Of a stretch of 18,949 bases of DNA, positions 1 through 7,138 are shown in pieces. Within the stretch, counting starts at the first letter, position 1; each line of letters starts with the position of its first letter. The notes under the pieces are model-generated. The model was not told the DNA's origin and searched no databases. It saw nothing but the letters and a program-made list of their open reading frames with translations. Source of the stretch: Planctomycetota bacterium (lineage in GTDB: Bacteria > Planctomycetota > UBA11346); assembly GCA_038213805.1 (NCBI GenBank), contig JBBQSO010000097.1, positions 1-18,949 on the forward strand, in the 5' to 3' direction. Position numbers and translations under genes: made by a program.

Positions 1-75
1 CTCGTGGCTGACCGGCCGCCTGACCCGGCGACCCTGACTCCACTCGCGCTGCGCGGGATCCTCGCACGCACCTGA
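1..75 (+). CDS. Possible 3' end of a gene entering from outside the window, convergent with the cassette array
   Basis: Frame 1 is open (LVADRPPDPATLTPLALRGILART) to TGA at 73-75, with GC-rich host-like codons. Too short to identify. Confidence 0.4.
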   Translation, partial: LVADRPPDPATLTPLALRGILART

Positions 76-121
76 TCCGATCAACACCGCGCAAGCGATG
101 GTGACAGGGGCTGGAGCGGGA

Positions 122-140
122 GTTCACCGGAGGCTTACAC
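122..140 (-). repeat. Degenerate attC remnant (R''-spacer-L'' only) at the distal end of the array
   Basis: Minus strand reads GTGTAAG-CCTCC-GGTGAAC versus consensus GTCTAAC-CAGTC-GGTGAAC. No rest of the repeat is visible in 1-121. Confidence 0.55.
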
Positions 141-242
141 ATCTTCCGCATAAATTCTCTGCCATGTAGGGCGGAGATCCCCACAGGATGCAATCACAAT
201 AATTGCGACAAATAAAAATGCATAAGCTACAAGTGACTTCAT
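135..242 (-). CDS. Cassette 1: 35-aa lipoprotein-like peptide, probably a truncated remnant
   Basis: MKSLVAYAFLFVAIIVIASC carries a lipobox-like IASC. ATG at 242-240. The longer ORF-track version begins inside the attC. Confidence 0.5.
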   Translation of the reverse strand: MKSLVAYAFLFVAIIVIASCGDLRPTWQRIYAEDV

Positions 243-274
243 ATCGCTTGTAACCCGTAATTTACTAGTGCGAG

Positions 275-486
275 GTCTAACATAGAGGTAACGGGGGCCA
301 TGGCCGATATGGCGCCAGTGTGCACAGCGCCCGTCGTGGGCAATTGGAAAGACGCCCGAGCGCAAAGGGCGTGCCGCCTAGCCGCGGCGGAGCGAGTCTA
401 CGAGTGAGCACGGCGTAGCGGCATGCCATTTGCGCGGAGAGTTGGAAACCGAGACACATGGGCTCCCGTTCACCGACTGGTTAGCC
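275..486 (-). repeat. attC site 1 (212 bp)
   Basis: Minus strand GGCTAAC-CAGTC-GGTGAAC ... GTTACC-TCTAT-GTTAGAC: R''/L'' and L'/R' boxes with one extrahelical base in L''. Confidence 0.92.
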
Positions 487-490
487 ACGG

Positions 491-892
491 CTAAAACTGC
501 GAGACCGATGTCCATACACCGATATGTAGAAACCAACAAAGCATTAGAGTGGAAACTACCGACATTCCGCAATATATACCTGTCAGCATTATCGATTTTA
601 TGGGAAATGCGCTTTTTATCAACATAAATGAACCGGGTAAGGAAAGTAGGTAAACGAGCGGTGACAGCAACAAGGTGAAGTTGGAAAATCTGGACCCCAT
701 TGGGTCACGCCATTTACCGCTTCCATGCAGTGTTCCATCGGGACTGATGTATTCGCCATACCAACGGGAGATCATATCGCCGTATGCATAATTCCATATG
801 AGTACGGACAAACCTACAGTAATTACGATTAAAGATAGCAACCTTCCGTATTTCTCGGTAATTCCTATCGACCGGCTTGTAGTGGCTAACAT
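491..892 (-). CDS. Cassette 2: small multi-pass membrane protein of unknown function
   Basis: About three hydrophobic segments. The only ATGs upstream of the first segment lie in the attC (nearest 892-890), so the start is uncertain. Confidence 0.7.
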   Translation of the reverse strand: MLATTSRSIGITEKYGRLLSLIVITVGLSVLIWNYAYGDMISRWYGEYISPDGTLHGSGKWRDPMGSRFSNFTLLLSPLVYLLSLPGSFMLIKSAFPIKSIMLTGIYCGMSVVSTLMLCWFLHIGVWTSVSQF

Positions 893-1096
893 AGAGGTAA
901 CGGGGGCCATGGCCGATATGACGCAAGTGTGCACTGCGCCCGTCGTGGGCAATTGGAAAGGCGCCCGAGCGCAAGTGGCGTGCCGCATAGCCGCGGCGGA
1001 GGGAGCGAAGCGACTGAGCACGGCGTAGCGGCATGCCACTTGCGCGGTCAGTCGGAGCGAGAAGTCCATGGGCTCCCGTTCACCGACTGGTTAGAC
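884..1096 (-). repeat. attC site 2 (213 bp)
   Basis: Same repeat family; GTCTAAC ... GTTAGCC. Confidence 0.92.
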
Positions 1097-1356
1097 GTGC
1101 CGAACATTTCCCCGCCGCACGCCATTTTATGAGATGCGAGAAATCTTGGGTCAAAGGATGCGATAGTCCAAAGCACTAACAATCACGATGTGGGACGCCC
1201 CCAATTCAACGCTTTCATCATTTTCTATTAATTGACCGAAGTCAGATACAATCCCAATTTGTATTAAGACAAAGCGGAGTCAATGATATAATAGTGTATA
1301 TTATCTTTTATCCTTTTATTTTCGCCAATTGTGTGAACACATTCGCTAATTCGACT

Positions 1357-1587
1357 TCATCCGGCATGCAGTGCACCATGCCAGTAAAACAAGTGTAGAT
1401 AGTTTACGATAATAAATTCACCAACTGCTGTTTTCCATGCCATTTCCATTGGATAATAAATCACGTACAATTTTTTATTCCACTGATTTGAATGTAATTC
1501 ATCGTATTTATGCGCAATACCGAATGATATTATATAGAGTAATACCACCGCGATGGCCGTTTTGGCGATGAAATTACTGTGACTCAT
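1357..1587 (-). CDS. Cassette 3: 76-aa protein with an N-terminal hydrophobic segment, followed by ~260 bp without a long ORF
   Basis: MSHSNFIAKTAIAVVLLYIISFG...; ATG at 1587-1585. Confidence 0.6.
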   Translation of the reverse strand: MSHSNFIAKTAIAVVLLYIISFGIAHKYDELHSNQWNKKLYVIYYPMEMAWKTAVGEFIIVNYLHLFYWHGALHAG

Positions 1588-1601
1588 GAAAACAGAGTCC
1601 A

Positions 1602-1812
1602 GTCTAACATAGAGGTAACGGGGGCCATGGCCGATGTGACGCAGCATGCGCAGCCCACGTCGTGGGCAATTGGAAAGAGGGCCGAGCGCAAGTGGCGTGC
1701 CGCATAGCCGCGGCGGAGCGAGTCTGCGAGTGAGCACGGCGTAGCGGCATGCCACTTGAGCGGACAGTTGGAACGAGCGGCCCATGGGCTCCCGTTCACC
1801 GACTGGTTAGAC
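1602..1812 (-). repeat. attC site 3 (211 bp)
   Basis: Same repeat family; GTCTAAC ... GTTAGAC. Confidence 0.92.
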
Positions 1813-2247
1813 GCCATGCGCAAAATTGTCAGTTGCCGCACCAATCTGATCCCAGCCGTATCCCTCTTGATTATCATTTGTTTTTAAAACCGTAAAGATG
1901 TAGCGGATGTTATTGTAATCTTGTTCGCTGAGCAACGGTTTCACCAATGACCATCTTGTGCCGAGAGAAGATAGATATGAATCAATATATTCAGCGTTGC
2001 GATGAAGGAACCAATTGCAAATAACAGGGTACATGTAAAAAAGAAGGTCATGTGCATCCATAAATGCAAAAACATCATGGTAGTATTCTAATTCAACGTG
2101 AGAAACTTCAATCGGATTGCAATGCGATATTGGTAATTTGGAATAACTTTCATCGCCATGATCATCCATCAACCGTCCTTCTCGCAAATTCATACCTGGA
2201 GGTGAATGTTTTTCAGATATCGCGAGAAGCGGTGCGATGATATTCAT
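1807..2247 (-). CDS. Cassette 4: hypothetical cytoplasmic protein (weak resemblance to DUF6714-type proteins)
   Basis: The ORF fills the cassette and its TAA lies inside R''. The motif FAFMDAHDLLFYMYP recalls DUF6714 from memory only. An alternative in-frame start is at 2259. Confidence 0.75.
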   Translation of the reverse strand: MNIIAPLLAISEKHSPPGMNLREGRLMDDHGDESYSKLPISHCNPIEVSHVELEYYHDVFAFMDAHDLLFYMYPVICNWFLHRNAEYIDSYLSSLGTRWSLVKPLLSEQDYNNIRYIFTVLKTNDNQEGYGWDQIGAATDNFAHGV

Positions 2248-2250
2248 GGA

Positions 2251-2462
2251 GTCTAACATAGAGGTAACGGGGGCCATGGCCGATATGACGTAGCATGCAC
2301 AGCGCCCGTCGTGGGCAATTGGAAAGGCGCCCGAGCGCAAGTGGCGTGCCGCTTAGCCGCGGCGGAGCGAGCGCAGCGAGTGAGCACGGCGTAGCGGCAT
2401 GCCACTTGCGCGGACAGTTGGAAACAGAGACACATGGGCTCCCGTTCACCGACTGGTTAGCC
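2251..2462 (-). repeat. attC site 4 (212 bp)
   Basis: Same repeat family; GGCTAAC ... GTTAGAC. Confidence 0.92.
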
Positions 2463-2688
2463 TTCGGTTCACCTTGGAGCGGAGAGCAATAAAGTATCTC
2501 ACAAGTGAAACAAGAGACAGTGTAATAATCAGCAGACCGCCGATTAATCCGAGCCAGGAATTTACCACAATATGCTCGCTGCCAGGCAGCATTTGTGCGT
2601 GGATTGTAATAGACCAAAGCGCTAAAATCATCCCGATTGGGAGAAGCACCAGAAAGGCGCCGGCATAGACAAATCGCGATAAAATCAC
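2446..2688 (-). CDS. Cassette 5: ~80-aa two-helix membrane protein
   Basis: Two hydrophobic segments and a basic tail. Start is GTG 2688 (or 2691/2694). The TGA falls in the L'' box of attC 4. Confidence 0.7.
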   Translation of the reverse strand: MILSRFVYAGAFLVLLPIGMILALWSITIHAQMLPGSEHIVVNSWLGLIGGLLIITLSLVSLVRYFIALRSKVNRRLTSR

Positions 2689-2711
2689 CACCAATATAAT
2701 CCTATTGAGAA

Positions 2712-2924
2712 GGCTAACATAGAGGTAACGGGGGCCATGGCCGATTAGGCGTCATCTTGCACGGCGGCCGTGGTGGGCAATTGGAAATGCGCCCGAGCAC
2801 AAGTGGCGTGCCACCTAGCCGCGGCGGAGCGAGCGAAGCGAGTGAGCACGGCGTAGTGGCATGCCACTTGTGCGGAGAGTTGGAAAGCGAGACGCATGGT
2901 CTCCCGTTCACCGACTGGTTAGGC
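2712..2924 (-). repeat. attC site 5 (213 bp)
   Basis: Same repeat family; GCCTAAC ... GTTAGCC. Confidence 0.92.
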
Positions 2925-2966
2925 ACGCACACGCAATAATCACAATTCGGCCACATTCTAGCCATT

Positions 2967-3344
2967 CTACGGCACACATATGCCGCATACGATTGGCTGG
3001 GCATTCAATGATAAAGCCAATTTTACAATTTTCCCATCATGTGTGGTTAATTCCATTTCATCACTTTTTATATTATAATATTTTATTACACAAGGCTTTG
3101 CCACTAGATCGCATATCTTTTTATATTCAGACCCGTGTCGTTGATATGCAACATGCCATGCTTGAGTTCTATTAATGCTTACTTGCATATATTGAAAACT
3201 GTCATTGGAGAATGATGTACGCCCCCTTCTTGCGGTACCGAACATTAAAAACCCATATGCATCCACATCGGACAGTAAATTTTCCTTGTTAGATTTAATG
3301 TCTGGCAATCTACCAATGTATTTTAAATCAGGTTGTCTTCGCAC
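2967..3344 (-). CDS. Cassette 6: hypothetical protein (125 aa)
   Basis: AT-rich ORF filling the cassette, GTG start; no motif recognised. Confidence 0.65.
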   Translation of the reverse strand: MRRQPDLKYIGRLPDIKSNKENLLSDVDAYGFLMFGTARRGRTSFSNDSFQYMQVSINRTQAWHVAYQRHGSEYKKICDLVAKPCVIKYYNIKSDEMELTTHDGKIVKLALSLNAQPIVCGICVP

Positions 3345-3348
3345 ATAA

Positions 3349-3559
3349 GCCTAACATAGAGGTAACGGGGGCCATGGCCGATGTGGCGTAGCATGCAGAA
3401 GGCCCGTCGTGGGCAATTGGAAAGACGCCCGAGCGCAAGTGGTGTGCCGCCTAGCCGCGGCGGAGCGAGTCTGCGAGTGAGCACGGCGTAGCGGCATGCC
3501 ACTTGCGCGGACAGTCGGAGCGAGAAGCCCATGGGCTCCCGTTCACCGATAGGTTAGAC
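3349..3559 (-). repeat. attC site 6 (211 bp)
   Basis: Same repeat family; GTCTAAC ... GTTAGGC. Confidence 0.92.
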
Positions 3560-3566
3560 ATCGCGT

Positions 3567-4007
3567 TTACGCCACAAATCCCAGTGACTGTGCCGATATC
3601 CATTGCCACACAGCCAAATCCATGGCCATGATTTTATCGGAAATGATTCCCCCATTCACAGAAGGATGCGGCATTAGGGCACACACTTGGCTTGCGCCAA
3701 GAACGATTCCACGTGATTTCCAATCCAACAACCTGAGAGACCATAAGTTCTCGATTTGCCACGATTCGTCATGCACAAGATTTACAAATTCTGCATCAGT
3801 GTCGGCAATACTATCCTGTGTTCCAAATAAAACGCTAATCCTGCAATATTTCTCATCTTCTGTTTGCAAAAACCATTCGCCTAACCTATTCAAAAAAATG
3901 ACCCTGTATCTCATCGAAGGAAGCAATGGATTCCAATACGCCAGATATTTAGCCGCCAGTTGCGGATCCAACCCCTGTATCAGCAAGTCGTCCCACGTCA
4001 GCTTCAC
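3567..4007 (-). CDS. Cassette 7: Tdi1/DUF1851-like toxin immunity protein (146 aa)
   Basis: The C-terminus LGASQVCALMPHPSVNGGIISDKIMAMDLAVWQWISAQ fits the DUF1851 (T6SS Tdi1 C-terminal) pattern as recalled. GTG start at 4007. Confidence 0.7.
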   Translation of the reverse strand: MKLTWDDLLIQGLDPQLAAKYLAYWNPLLPSMRYRVIFLNRLGEWFLQTEDEKYCRISVLFGTQDSIADTDAEFVNLVHDESWQIENLWSLRLLDWKSRGIVLGASQVCALMPHPSVNGGIISDKIMAMDLAVWQWISAQSLGFVA

Positions 4008-4027
4008 GGAATCACCACGAGCAAGAT

Positions 4028-4238
4028 GTCTAACATAGAGGTAACGGGGACCATGGCCGATAAGGCGTAGCATGCATAGCGATCGTGGTGGGCAAATGGA
4101 AAGGCGCCCGAGCGCAAATGGCGTGCCGCCTAGCCGCGGCGGAGCGAGTCTGCGAGTGAGCACGGCGTAGCGGCATGCCATTTGCGCGGCGAGTTGGAAA
4201 CCGAGACGCATGGTCTCCCGTTCACCGACTGGTTAGAA
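4028..4238 (-). repeat. attC site 7 (211 bp)
   Basis: Same repeat family; TTCTAAC ... GTTAGAC. A second GGCTAAC lies at 4251-4257. Confidence 0.9.
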
Positions 4239-4260
4239 CAGCACACCGGTGTTAGCCGAT

Positions 4261-4608
4261 TCAAACCATTACCTGAAAGAAGGACTGCGAAAGCCCAGTA
4301 TTCATGTCGAGAACATCAATGATATCAATTGTTCCTACTGATAATTCCTTGGCAACATTTTCAGCTATGGAGACCTTGTATCCAAATGCATTGCGAACGG
4401 TCACGGGATCCACATCACCTTTCTTATAGTTTCCTATCCAATAATGCTTCGCATGATATTCAAAGATTGAATCTTCGCTGTATTCGACCTTTACACCAAG
4501 TCCAACCACAAAAGCGGGCGTCATATCTTGCTCACAACCAGACTTGATTAGTTCAACAAATCGCTTTTTTGCAGCGGACGTAAACTTTAAGAATTGCGCC
4601 TTTTTCAT
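4261..4608 (-). CDS. Cassette 8: hypothetical protein, possible HesB/IscA-like fold
   Basis: The N-terminus LKFTSAAKKRFVELI resembles the A-type carrier start (ITLTxAAxxxIxxL) and the size is similar, but the C-terminal CxC motif is absent. Confidence 0.65.
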   Translation of the reverse strand: MKKAQFLKFTSAAKKRFVELIKSGCEQDMTPAFVVGLGVKVEYSEDSIFEYHAKHYWIGNYKKGDVDPVTVRNAFGYKVSIAENVAKELSVGTIDIIDVLDMNTGLSQSFFQVMV

Positions 4609-4622
4609 AGGAGAAAGTCTAA

Positions 4623-4802
4623 CATGGTATGGGACCTTGAATTGACGCGATAACGACCGAAGGGCCCCGGATAGCGACCCACTAACCAGCCAAGTGACCG
4701 TGTTAGGGTGTGTTGGAGCAGAACGGCATGCGCGAGATTAGAGCACATCAAAAGTACATCAACTGATACCTTGCGTCGCTGCAAAACTGGTTTGGAGGCT
4801 AA
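4623..4802 (-). repeat. Type B 180-bp repeat, copy 1 (putative promoter + attI-like unit)
   Basis: Bounded by G|TTAG at both ends. About 16 substitutions and no indels relative to the copy at 5510-5689. Confidence 0.85.
4735..4762 (-). promoter_or_regulatory. Putative sigma70-type promoter in type B copy 1
   Basis: TTGATG-16 bp-TAATCT pointing into the cassettes. Both hexamers are identical between the two copies, while the spacer differs at 4 positions. Confidence 0.5.
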
Positions 4803-5008
4803 CATAGAGGTAACGGGGGCCATGGCCGATATGACGTAGCATGCGTGGCCCACGTCGTGGGCAATTGGAAAGTGGGCCGAGCGCAAGTGGCGTGACGCCT
4901 AGCCGCGGCGGAGCGAGGCCCCCGAGTGAGCACGGCGTAGCGGCATGCCACTTGCGCGGACAGTTGGAACGACCAGCCCATGGGCTCCCGTTCACCGAAC
5001 GGTTAGAC
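4797..5008 (-). repeat. attC site 8 (212 bp)
   Basis: Same repeat family; GTCTAAC ... GTTAGCC. Confidence 0.92.
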
Positions 5009-5494
5009 ATCGTACGGATCGCTTATTCCAAATTCGACTATCAATTTTCGTATTTCACTGCATGGATCGCTTGCAACTTGGTGCGCATTAATGTCGCAGA
5101 AGTAATATGAAATTTTCCTTTGGCATAATTTTAAGAGGCGACGCGCCACTAAATTGTCATTGTTTAAGACGGCATAAGAGAGTGCAGTGTCGCCATTAAC
5201 CGTTTTAGCGTCAACATTTGCCCCGCAGTTTAATAGATAATCAACTAAATGGTGGTATTCCAATCGCACCGCATGCATTAATGGTGTTGCAAAGAAATGG
5301 TCTACTGTATTAATATCGGAGCCCATCTTCTGAAGGAACTGAATTGAGTCCATCCTGTTTTCTACAACACACCAATGCAATGCAGTCTCGCCAGGAATAT
5401 TTTTAAGAGATAGCAACGATTTGTTTCCCAAGATGGCATTTCTTGCAGCAATCTTGTCGTTTTCCACTAATCGAATGAATTGGTAAAAATCCAT
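5003..5494 (-). CDS. Cassette 9: ankyrin repeat protein (163 aa)
   Basis: Repeats GETALHW..., ATPLMHAV...LLNCGANVDAK and GDTALSYAV. The TAA lies inside R''. Confidence 0.92.
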   Translation of the reverse strand: MDFYQFIRLVENDKIAARNAILGNKSLLSLKNIPGETALHWCVVENRMDSIQFLQKMGSDINTVDHFFATPLMHAVRLEYHHLVDYLLNCGANVDAKTVNGDTALSYAVLNNDNLVARRLLKLCQRKISYYFCDINAHQVASDPCSEIRKLIVEFGISDPYDV

Positions 5495-5509
5495 ATTCTA
5501 GATGTCTAA

Positions 5510-5689
5510 CATGGTATGGGACCTTGAATTGACGCGATAACGACCGAAAGGCCCCGGATAGCGACCCGCTAACCAGCCCAGCAACCGTGTTAGGGTGTGT
5601 TGGAGCACAAAGGCATGCGCGAGATTAGAGTGCAACGAAAGTACATCAACTGATACCTTGCGTCGCTGCAATGCATGTATGGAGGCTAA
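5510..5689 (-). repeat. Type B 180-bp repeat, copy 2 (putative promoter + attI-like unit)
   Basis: As for copy 1. The junction at 5510 is a supported crossover point: GTTAGACATC is complementary over 10 bp to the R'' of the ankyrin cassette. Confidence 0.85.
5622..5649 (-). promoter_or_regulatory. Putative sigma70-type promoter in type B copy 2
   Basis: TTGATG-16 bp-TAATCT. Confidence 0.5.
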
Positions 5690-5790
5690 CATAGAGGTAA
5701 CGGGGCCATGGCCGATTAGGCGTCAACATGCACCACACCCCTCGCGGGCAATTGGAATGCCGCCCGAGCGCTACTGGTGTGGTGCCTATC
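5684..5790 (-). repeat. Partial attC (L'/R' arm only) at the proximal end of the array
   Basis: About 100 bp match the R'-side half of the repeat, decaying with distance. No GGTGAAC/CTAAC partner is present where expected (~5875-5895). Confidence 0.75.
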
Positions 5791-5895
5791 TTCGCCAACC
5801 AGCATCGCGGACTCTGGGGGCGCCCGAGAGCACAGTTCGCGGGTGTGTTTCAGGGAGTCTGCGAGCACCCGCTGCCAGGCGTCATCCGGTGGCAT
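5716..5895 (-). CDS. Possible 59-aa leader ORF running into the partial attC
   Basis: AAGGAG lies 9 nt before the ATG (MPPDDAWQ...), downstream of a terminator. Its C-terminal part is attC-derived sequence. Confidence 0.4.
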   Translation of the reverse strand: MPPDDAWQRVLADSLKHTRELCSRAPPESAMLVGEDRHHTSSARAAFQLPARGVVHVDA

Positions 5896-6001
5896 GGTGC
5901 TTTGCTCCTTGTGAGCGTTCAGGCACGCCGTCATGGCCGAATGCCAGATTGCTTGAGGGAGAGGACTACCACCTCCTGTTGGCGAGACATGACAGGCGCA
6001 C

Positions 6002-6034
6002 AAAAATAAGACCCCGGGGCAACCCCAGGGTCTC
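6002..6034 (-). terminator. Intrinsic terminator of the YHS-like gene
   Basis: Minus strand AGACCCTGGG-GTTGC-CCCGGGGTCT followed by TATTTTT. Confidence 0.75.
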
Positions 6035-6061
6035 ATGTGAGCGTCCACTAAAACGTGAGGT

Positions 6062-6316
6062 TCAGAGCTTCTTGTTCGCCTCGGCGGCCGCGACGTACTT
6101 CTTCGGGTCGGCCTTGACCTTGGCGGCGCACTTGTTGCAGCACACGCCGATCTCAACTTCCTTGCCGGCGCTGTCCTTGGCCTTGATCGGGGCGACCGCG
6201 GGGTCGACATCTTTGCCGGTGGCCGGGCAGACGGTGTTGACGGCCTTGGGGGCATCCTCGGCCATGGCCGCACTGACGAAGGAGAGTGAGAGGATGAGGG
6301 TGAGGATGTGACGCAT
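6062..6316 (-). CDS. Small exported YHS/TRASH-like metal-binding protein (84 aa)
   Basis: Signal peptide ending AMA-E; motifs NTVCPATG and GVCCNKC...ADPKKY; AAGGA upstream; host-like codon usage. Confidence 0.85.
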   Translation of the reverse strand: MRHILTLILSLSFVSAAMAEDAPKAVNTVCPATGKDVDPAVAPIKAKDSAGKEVEIGVCCNKCAAKVKADPKKYVAAAEANKKL

Positions 6317-6708
6317 GGAGGATGTCCTTGTGAGAGGGCTTGGCTTAGGGACTACGGAAATGAGAGCGCTGCGTTCACGAGTCGCGATATGGTTGGCACT
6401 TCATGGGTGGACGGAAACTGGTCCTCGCGCACCTGAACACCTATTTCGAGCGGCTCCGACCCTCGTCTTTTACTGCTCTCATCATCGAGCCCTTTCGCAT
6501 CCCGCCTACCCCACCAGCCAGGACGAGTGCGTTAACCCGGTCCCTGTTCTCCAGTGGAGAATCAGAGAACGGCCCGTGCATTGGCCCCAGTGACGGGGGT
6601 GTCCTGCTTGGTCACCAGGATCTCATTCCAGAACGGAGAACGGTTCCACGTGCTAAGTCTTTGCCCGTTGGGGGTTGCGTGGGCCATTCAGCGGCCCGGC
6701 CCCATAAC

Positions 6709-6736
6709 AAAAAATCCCCGGCTTGCGCCGAGGATT
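6709..6736 (-). terminator. Intrinsic terminator after the tRNA
   Basis: AATCCTCGGC-GCAA-GCCGGGGATT followed by a T run. Confidence 0.85.
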
Positions 6737-6741
6737 CCACG

Positions 6742-6818
<77 letters not shown>

Positions 6819-6831
6819 TCGTGAGGGCAGG

Positions 6832-6859
6832 ACCATAGGAGGGCTGCCAGGGTTGTCAA
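6832..6859 (-). promoter_or_regulatory. Stable-RNA-type sigma70 promoter of the tRNA
   Basis: TTGACA (6859-6854), 16 bp, TATGGT (6837-6832), then a GC-rich discriminator. Confidence 0.75.
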
Positions 6860-7138
6860 ACCCTGGTTCAGAGCCGTTGGGCAGGTGATCGATGCGTGCC
6901 GGACAAGATCTAACTCCTGGAACGGCAAGGGTTCGAATCAGCGCAGTGGCGACCAGCCACATCTATTTCCTGCGCTGGGGGCTTGAGTGGGCGGATCGGG
7001 GTGACAGCTGCGGGCGCGGCGTGGGTGGCATGACGCTGTGGGGGAATCCCCCGTGGGCGATCAGACCCGCAGGATTTCCCCGCATGGACCTCATCTGCGG
7101 CCGGATACAATGGGGGCGTACCCCTTTCGGAGCCAGCC

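Follow-up and report, generated by a model that had tools for sequence, protein, structure and literature searches.

Organization of the cassette array

The stretch of DNA analyzed here (18,949 nt; hereafter the window) is contig JBBQSO010000097.1 of a Planctomycetota metagenome-assembled genome (MAG; GCA_038213805.1, lineage UBA11346, 90% complete, labeled G000 below), and its left third, from position 1 to ~5793, is occupied by a minus-strand integron cassette array. The subject of this study is a pair of gene-less 180-nt units inside that array, termed unit B (5510-5689) and unit A (4623-4802). A profile built from the array repeats gave nine attC matches in the window (nhmmer), comprising eight full recombination sites of ~212 nt and one truncated site, and none within either unit. 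In layout the array sites are canonical attC sites, and their folds are strong, as in the site at 4797-5016 with -54.5 kcal/mol and a z-score of -3.16, for which none of 200 shuffled sequences folded as well. They are also highly homogeneous (273-5011, e.g., 4797-5008) and much longer than the 57-141 bp given in PMC12901181.

Read on the minus strand, the proximal end of the array is a truncated attC (5690-5793; profile match 5682-5793) that retains only the R'/L' half (model positions 108-219 only), breaks off at CTAG, the center of the attC consensus, and abuts unit B with its R' G/TTAGCC (the slash marks the crossover point). Unit B consists of a unique 87-nt 5' segment (5603-5689) followed by an attI homologue (5510-5602, with the core GTTAGAC extending to 5504), the latter including a distal box CAACACACCCTAACACGG at 5585-5602, as delimited by the six-site alignment described below, and three phased direct repeats at 5514-5566 formed by GGTCGCTATC (5557-5566), GGTCGTTATC (5536-5545), and GGTCCCATAC (5514-5523). 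Next comes a 707-bp cassette (4803-5509) with an ankyrin-repeat open reading frame (ORF; 5003-5494, Pfam Ank families) and its attC at 4797-5008 (profile match 4795-5011). Unit A, the second copy, lies between this attC and the cassette designated cas8, with its distal box at 4698-4715 in the same alignment and three phased GGTC repeats at 4627-4679 (4670-4679, 4649-4658, and 4627-4636). Cassette cas8 itself (4034-4622) carries an ORF of 115 amino acids without a family match (4261-4608) and an attC at 4028-4238. All of these features are on the minus strand. A tblastn search of the window (E up to 10) identified neither an integrase gene (intI) nor an intI remnant.

Sequence features of the two units

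The units are direct copies identical at 164 of 180 positions (91.1%), and a repeat search paired the slightly larger intervals 4617-4818 and 5504-5705 at 92% identity. On the minus strand, each begins after an attC R' (CTCTATG/TTAGCC) and ends at ...ACCATG/TTAGAC, and in both respects, the similarity and the edges, the two copies are as described in a first-pass annotation made from this DNA alone. Of the inter-unit differences, 11 fall in the 5' 87 nt and five in the 3' 93 nt. The annotation also placed an invariant stretch of ~38 nt beside the 3' end; the stretch exists and extends over 45 nt (4617-4661 versus 5504-5548). The 10-bp direct repeat that it reported at 4649-4658 and 4670-4679 (GGTCGTTATC and GGTCGCTATC) recurs in unit B (5536-5545 and 5557-5566) and is far above chance, with four matches to GGTCGYTATC in the window compared to 0.07 expected and 0 of 200 shuffles reaching four. 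To this can be added a third phased GGTC repeat, GGTCCCATAC, 22 nt further on, such that the three repeats start at unit positions 124, 145, and 167 with start-to-start spacings of 21 and 22 nt.

Each unit has two recognizable core sites: CCCTAAC (unit position 95), which matches the attC R'' consensus (RYYYAAC), and GTTAGAC (position 180), which matches that of R' (GTTRRRY). In both units, CTAACATGGT (5506-5515 in unit B) pairs with ACCGTGTTAG (5585-5594), ~85 nt away, at 10 of 10 positions, which contradicts the earlier statement that the 3' end lacks a complement, although the fold is weak (z about -1.3). No frame of the units looks coding, the single open frame having two synonymous and 10 non-synonymous changed codons. 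A search of window positions 1-7000 on both strands against Rfam (E up to 1) returned nothing in the units, with no group II intron and no riboswitch, which makes an intron remnant or a known RNA less likely.

Homology to intI-adjacent attI sites

A 192-nt unit query matched only three places in its own genome, namely the two units and a site on another contig (G000:C7:4585-4682) with 73% identity to query positions 94-192 (blastn). This third site separates an integrase gene, encoded on the opposite strand, from the first cassette of another array with seven attC sites; the gene codes for an integron integrase (TIGR02249, 375.6 bits versus a cut-off of 265) that is the only intact IntI in the MAG. 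It follows that the 3' ~100 nt of the unit and the attI of its own genome are homologous. DNA matches to the unit were identified in four of the 48 genomes of the family, and an order-level search covered the same 48 genomes and added nothing. In two sister species (G013:C34 and G006:C205) the match again sits between intI and the first cassette, a position shared by all three intI-adjacent loci (3/3), and a further match, G013:C9, stands at the head of an array in which the attC profile had 16 hits (L014 5895-16575) and no intI or intI remnant was found within the 16.6 kb examined. The matches between the unit and these attI-type sites had 73-75% identity over ~100 nt with E-values from 6e-6 to 1.6e-12 (blastn). 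The "attI-like" character attributed to the units at first pass is borne out by these homologues of the 3' ~100 nt beside intI in G000:C7, G013:C34, and G006:C205. The accompanying question, whether such a unit is always preceded by an attC R', has a positive answer for both window units and a negative one for the intI-adjacent copies, as reading of the sequences and the alignment revealed no attC and no G/TT cassette boundary upstream of them. The window units themselves are array-internal and do not lie between intI and a first cassette.

An alignment of the six attI-type sites (the two window units, G000:C7, G013:C34, G006:C205, and G013:C9) had 56 invariant columns of 106, clustered in the distal box CAACACACCCTAACACGG, CTGGTTAG, and AGGTCCCATACCATGTTAG. 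The distal box was near-invariant, with one C/T difference in G006, and of the three non-random GGTC repeats, DR1 showed partial conservation across the six. When the six sites were built into a sequence model, each scored 88-98 bits, and the rest of the family yielded only weak, partial matches. The exact 18-mer CTAACATGGTATGGGACC was found in genome and metagenome contigs at the known sister-species loci and in three further hits (L009, L012, and L013), which were rejected as chance-like with the rest of the site missing (L009 having been read 320 nt upstream and 480 nt downstream).

Pairwise identities between loci formed a continuum of 66-80%, the two window units being 94% alike, and the site of G013:C9 was 78.6% identical to the intI-adjacent site of its own genome and 76-77% to the window units. 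This continuum suggests that the orphan copies are old attI paralogues of the lineage and not imports from another integron class.

The distal box (CCAACACACCCTAACACGG) was also observed upstream of intI in other species and another genus (G045:C11 = L023 ~1400-1535; L022 and L026). It is present as several palindromic copies (GTTAGAGGGTGTTCGAACACCCTCTAAC) in G007 and G012, including palindromic multiples ~220 bp upstream of intI in G007:C1 (L021 136-360), and could be a putative integrase-binding or regulator-binding element.

Cassette junctions and contig variants in public metagenomes

Two unrelated cassettes, ankyrin and cas8, are joined to units B and A, respectively, at ACCATG/TTAGAC with the core GTTRRRY. 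The start of the ankyrin cassette, GTTAGACATC (5510-5501, minus strand), recurs in inverted orientation at the R'' of the same cassette (5002-5011, plus strand), in agreement with the 10-bp match noted at first pass.

Logan contigs from two public runs of one study (X1 and X2) were placed on positions 4240-5830, and window stretches without contig cover were counted as absent only where bridged by a contig. In X2, a 1020-nt contig (depth 6.9) reads from the flank through the truncated attC and one unit into cas8, with a joint from 4750 to 5638 that falls within a 34-nt stretch common to both units, and the ankyrin cassette is absent (depth 0 over 5050-5589). In X1, two contigs (4969-5284 and 5299-5533) cover the ankyrin cassette, the second extending 30 nt into unit-specific sequence. 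A 377-nt X1 contig covers 5550-5830 and beyond with A-type letters at eight listed positions and B-type letters at the right end, the unit in X1 thus being the same A-type/B-type mosaic as in X2. Finally, in a 440-nt X1 contig (depth 11), the R' end of an attC stands immediately next to cas8 at 4618; the joint skips exactly 180 bases (4618 to 4799), with seven letters common to both sides of the joint and only 28 letters, of generic attC sequence, on the short side.

Put together, X2 would have the order truncated attC, unit, and cas8, while X1, with its linkage drawn from short contigs, would have the order truncated attC, unit, ankyrin, attC, and cas8; given the same linkage, the window would be the X1 arrangement plus unit A. 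If the pieces are linked in this way, the difference between X1 and X2 fits one cassette gained or lost at the G/TT core of the unit. As cas8 stands behind a unit in X2 and behind an attC in X1, and different cassettes stand behind the units, the unit is not the fixed 5' untranslated region of one cassette, an arrangement that the first-pass annotation had named as contrary to its own proposal, and the same observations support its claim that the 3' end is a crossover point. Movement of the 180-bp unit as a whole module is only hinted at, by the one weak contig joint.

Array-internal attI paralogues as candidate cassette entry points

Each unit is probably a complete array-internal paralogue of the integron lineage's attI and, as such, a potential extra entry point for cassettes. 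The attI identity is supported by the site of G000:C7, the two intI-adjacent sites of the sister species, the invariant alignment columns, the phased repeats, the G/TT junctions, and the contig variants. The putative attI part spans ~93-100 nt and contains the distal box, an internal GTTAG, the three phased GGTC repeats, and the core GTTAGAC; the 87 nt of unique non-coding DNA precede it. A unit sits in the array like a gene-less cassette with an attI-type site, its left edge being the G/TT of the preceding attC and its right edge its own G/TT. The single intact IntI encoded on the other contig (G000:C7) is predicted to bind the units and catalyze recombination at them in trans, such that an attI x attC reaction would make them additional points of cassette entry in an array without an adjacent integrase.

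The units may have entered the array by either of two routes. An attI-bearing segment could have been excised and inserted by attC x attI recombination, as the first-pass annotation proposed, or cassettes could have entered a secondary GTT upstream of an attI heading an array, after which the block would have traveled as a composite cassette.

Several observations weigh against this interpretation. The units are only 66% identical to the attI of their own genome over 104 aligned columns, which makes recognition by the resident IntI uncertain, and the conserved terminal inverted repeats leave room for a folded, attC-like mode of recombination. The window comes from a MAG and is rich in ~212-nt repeats; the arrangement with two units was seen in neither X1 nor X2, and no contig of either run covers the A-type right end of unit A (4751-4796). 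The X1 linkage comes from short contigs with sides of 28 and 30 letters compared to a 31-letter rule. In addition, the mosaic units indicate that homologous recombination between units also acts, such that some variants need no integrase; an event of this kind could likewise turn the window form into the X2 form.

A stronger version of the proposal, considered doubtful, is that the complete attI and its leader form a mobile gene-less "attI cassette" that is excised by attC x attI recombination and re-inserted at any attC. If true, such cassettes would seed high-efficiency entry points, and perhaps promoters, deep in arrays or at the head of clusters of attC sites lacking integron-integrases (CALINs) that are fed in trans. 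This would explain how CALINs stay active and how the distal cassettes of large arrays stay accessible.

Alternatively, the units would be inert scars of array fusion or rearrangement, either homologous or mediated by insertion sequences (IS), with no present role in recombination or expression. This explanation appears unlikely, although it can draw on the truncated attC broken at its central CTAG at the proximal end of the array, IS5-like and IS3-like elements in the attC centers of a sister species, a decayed second intI-like gene on G000:C54, and the X2 variant, which equals the window minus 887 bp with its joint in the shared 34-nt stretch and hence reflects homologous recombination and not a G/TT crossover. 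Against it stand edges that lie at G/TT to the base on both sides of both units, an attI part that is better conserved between the copies (five differences in 93 nt) than the 5' part (11 in 87 nt), and X1 and X2 contigs that fit the gain or loss of a single cassette exactly at the unit core.

attI-type or attC-type recombination site

All six attI-type sites retain the terminal inverted repeat, with 10 of 10 pairs in five and nine of 10 in G013:C34, and with both of its arms invariant, covariation is absent. Both window units keep only four of the seven inner pairs, compared to all seven in G000:C7, six in two other sites, and five in one; all changes are on one arm and none is compensatory. 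The sites fold with -11 to -14 kcal/mol and z-scores of -1.2 to -2.05 (-1.3 to -1.4 for the unit sites), and a bottom-strand hairpin is the minimum-energy structure in five of six, the intI-adjacent site of L007 forming none (z +0.82). The unit stem is a run of 10 contiguous pairs without an unpaired central spacer, and the array attC profile matched none of the attI-type sites (nhmmer). Based on the weak fold, the missing central spacer, and the absence of an attC profile match, the recombination site of the unit is read as attI-type, with a folded mode retained as a minority alternative.

In that alternative, the unit would be an ordinary gene-less cassette with a short second type of attC in its 3' ~93 nt, recombined as a folded single strand, while what is called attI beside intI in the three genomes would be a site of this type too, or else a gene-less cassette in first position. 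This is regarded as quite improbable. It accounts for the inverted cores CCCTAAC and GTTAGAC ~85 nt apart with nine to 10 of the 10 outer pairs in all six sites, for the inner pairing of 7/7 in G000:C7 and 6/7 in two others, for the hairpin as minimum-energy fold in five of six sites, and for a site length typical of attC. Against this stand folds of -11 to -14 kcal/mol compared to -54.5 kcal/mol (z -3.16) for an array attC, the positive z-score of L007, the stem without a central spacer, the 4/7 inner pairs of the units without compensatory change, the lack of attC profile matches, and intI-adjacent copies with neither an attC nor a G/TT boundary upstream.

That the two-unit tandem is an assembly artefact of the MAG, in which a repeat-induced path threads one unit twice, is highly improbable despite the repeat-rich contig, an attC-unit A junction that was not reproduced in X1 or X2, and the uncovered right end of unit A, since a collapsed or re-threaded repeat would yield identical copies while these differ at 16 of 180 positions, including letters found in neither run (a B-type middle and an A-type right end), and the unit-ankyrin and unit-cas8 junctions were each seen independently in contigs.

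Candidate promoter in the 5' segment

The first-pass annotation proposed a promoter in each unit on the basis of the motif TTGATG-16-TAATCT, which is present in both (4762-4735 in unit A and 5649-5622 in unit B, minus strand). The hexamers are indeed retained in the two copies, but a consensus scan identified no sigma-70-like site in either unit, the candidate of unit B (5622-5649) lying below the threshold of the scan, and the second hexamer matches TATAAT at three of six positions. The conservation is also not significant, with a probability of 0.32 that 12 chosen positions are untouched given 16 differences in 180 nt. The 87-nt segment aligned with the DNA upstream of the other four attI-type sites with scores no better than shuffles, and a blastn search (word size 7) of all loci and the entire genome matched it to the two units only. 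A promoter function of this segment is so far unsupported and rather unlikely. The genome's own attI in G000:C7 contains a promoter-like TTCAAA-17-TATCAT (L003 1531-1559, minus strand) in its variable middle that points at the cassettes and is not conserved in the window units.

Genome context

To the right of position 5793, the DNA is G+C-rich and not array-like, with a small gene (6062-6316) and a tRNA (6745-6818). Only this small gene (5995-6338) and the tRNA of the window matched the sister genomes in a comparison of flanking synteny. The window flank was ruled out as the same locus as that of G013:C9, the flank of the latter matching G000:C18 instead. The upstream flank of G013:C9 is syntenic with G000:C18, which has no array, and the G013:C9 array adjoins a superoxide-dismutase-like gene (labeled from reading of the ORF only).

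Among the cassette genes of the window, ORF 1807-2340 had a weak, sub-threshold match to DUF6714 (25.2 bits versus a cut-off of 27), and besides this ORF and the ankyrin ORF, the other six cassette ORFs scanned had no Pfam match. A decayed integron-integrase-like gene (G000:C54:3934-4620, minus strand) is 47% identical to IntI residues 139-366, has changed catalytic motifs and no array beside it, and may be the relic of a second integron.

In the sister-species array (L014 8377-9253 and 14053-15332), an IS5-like element, with inverted repeats and a duplicated CTAAG, and an IS3-like element occupy attC centers. Together with the window attC cut at its central CTAG, these elements indicate that IS-mediated rearrangement also shaped the arrays, and the attC center seems to be an IS target.

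Implications for chromosomal integrons

Integron theory assigns a single attI, located beside the integrase, as the place where new cassettes enter and are expressed, and arrays without an integrase are regarded as passive relics. Diverged complete attI copies inside an array, and one heading an integrase-less sister array, all with correct cassette joints, suggest that chromosomal integrons may run several entry points from one integrase. This has a bearing on the maintenance of CALINs and on the order and expression of cassettes in large arrays. It would also carry the "unusual delta-attI cassettes" known from clinical integrons over to environmental chromosomal ones, the layout of an internal docking site having so far been described mainly in clinical mobile integrons. 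The genuine attI and its array-internal paralogue further provide a concrete pair of substrates for recombination assays.

Comparison with known integron systems

The closest counterparts are the delta-attI-type cassettes (Partridge, 2009, cited in PMC12901181; Gonzales Machuca et al., Sci Rep 2026), in which an attI-derived site ending at the crossover G replaces attC inside the array, often behind an attC. Examples include attCaadA1-aadB-delta-attI2-238 in class 1/2 integrons, which holds 244 bp of attI2 behind an attC, and complete attI1 duplicates such as attI1-delta-aacA4-attI1, and IntI1 excises and inserts delta-attI units in vivo (PMC12901181). Such recombining array-internal sites in class 1/2 integrons are a precedent for reading the window units as additional attI copies, and the assertion that nothing like this had been described was therefore too strong.

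The recombination site of the window unit resembles those of delta-attI cassettes in being attI-derived and ending at the crossover G. According to the same source, delta-attI cassettes carry a resistance ORF, whereas the window units lack an ORF and have only the 87-nt segment upstream; most delta-attI units keep only 14-18 nt of attI, whereas the window units keep the whole conserved attI (~100 nt); and delta-attI units are 100% identical to the resident attI, whereas the window copies have diverged (66%). The hosts also differ, being mobile class 1/2 integrons in the one case and a chromosomal integron of Planctomycetota in the other.

A CALIN with its own attI is present in the Shewanella prophage M16-3, with a complete integron having the same attI type elsewhere in the genome (PMC9892861). 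In having an attI-type site at the head of an integrase-less array it resembles G013:C9, and it loosely resembles the window array. The attI of M16-3 stands at the array start, while the window units are internal, each behind an attC R', with two of them within 900 bp.

Gene-less promoter cassettes are a feature of Vibrio superintegrons and reportedly also of oral metagenomes, and the window units are like them in being short and without an ORF. Those of Vibrio contain no ORF and can drive downstream cassettes (PMC11014356). They end in a normal attC and have measured promoter activity, whereas the site of the window unit is predicted to be attI-type and its promoter is only a candidate.

The attI1 of class 1 integrons consists of a core GTTRRRY at the crossover and directly repeated accessory integrase-binding sites, DR1 and DR2, upstream (PMC12901181 and PMC3146285). 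The window units likewise combine a crossover core with upstream direct repeats that are putative binding sites. They differ from attI1 in lacking sequence similarity to it, in having three phased GGTC repeats, and in a distal inverted core box, located ~85 nt upstream and able to base-pair with the core. Literature searches on duplicated attI sites in chromosomal integrons, or attI sites lying inside their arrays, gave PMC12901181 and PMC9892861 as the nearest articles and no report on Planctomycetota or on a gene-less unit with a complete attI, subscription literature lying outside the search. Judged from its sequence, the window arrangement thus appears to differ from the known cases in joining ORF-less units, a whole conserved attI that is a diverged paralogue, two copies within 900 bp, and an attC R' before each copy in a chromosomal integron of Planctomycetota.

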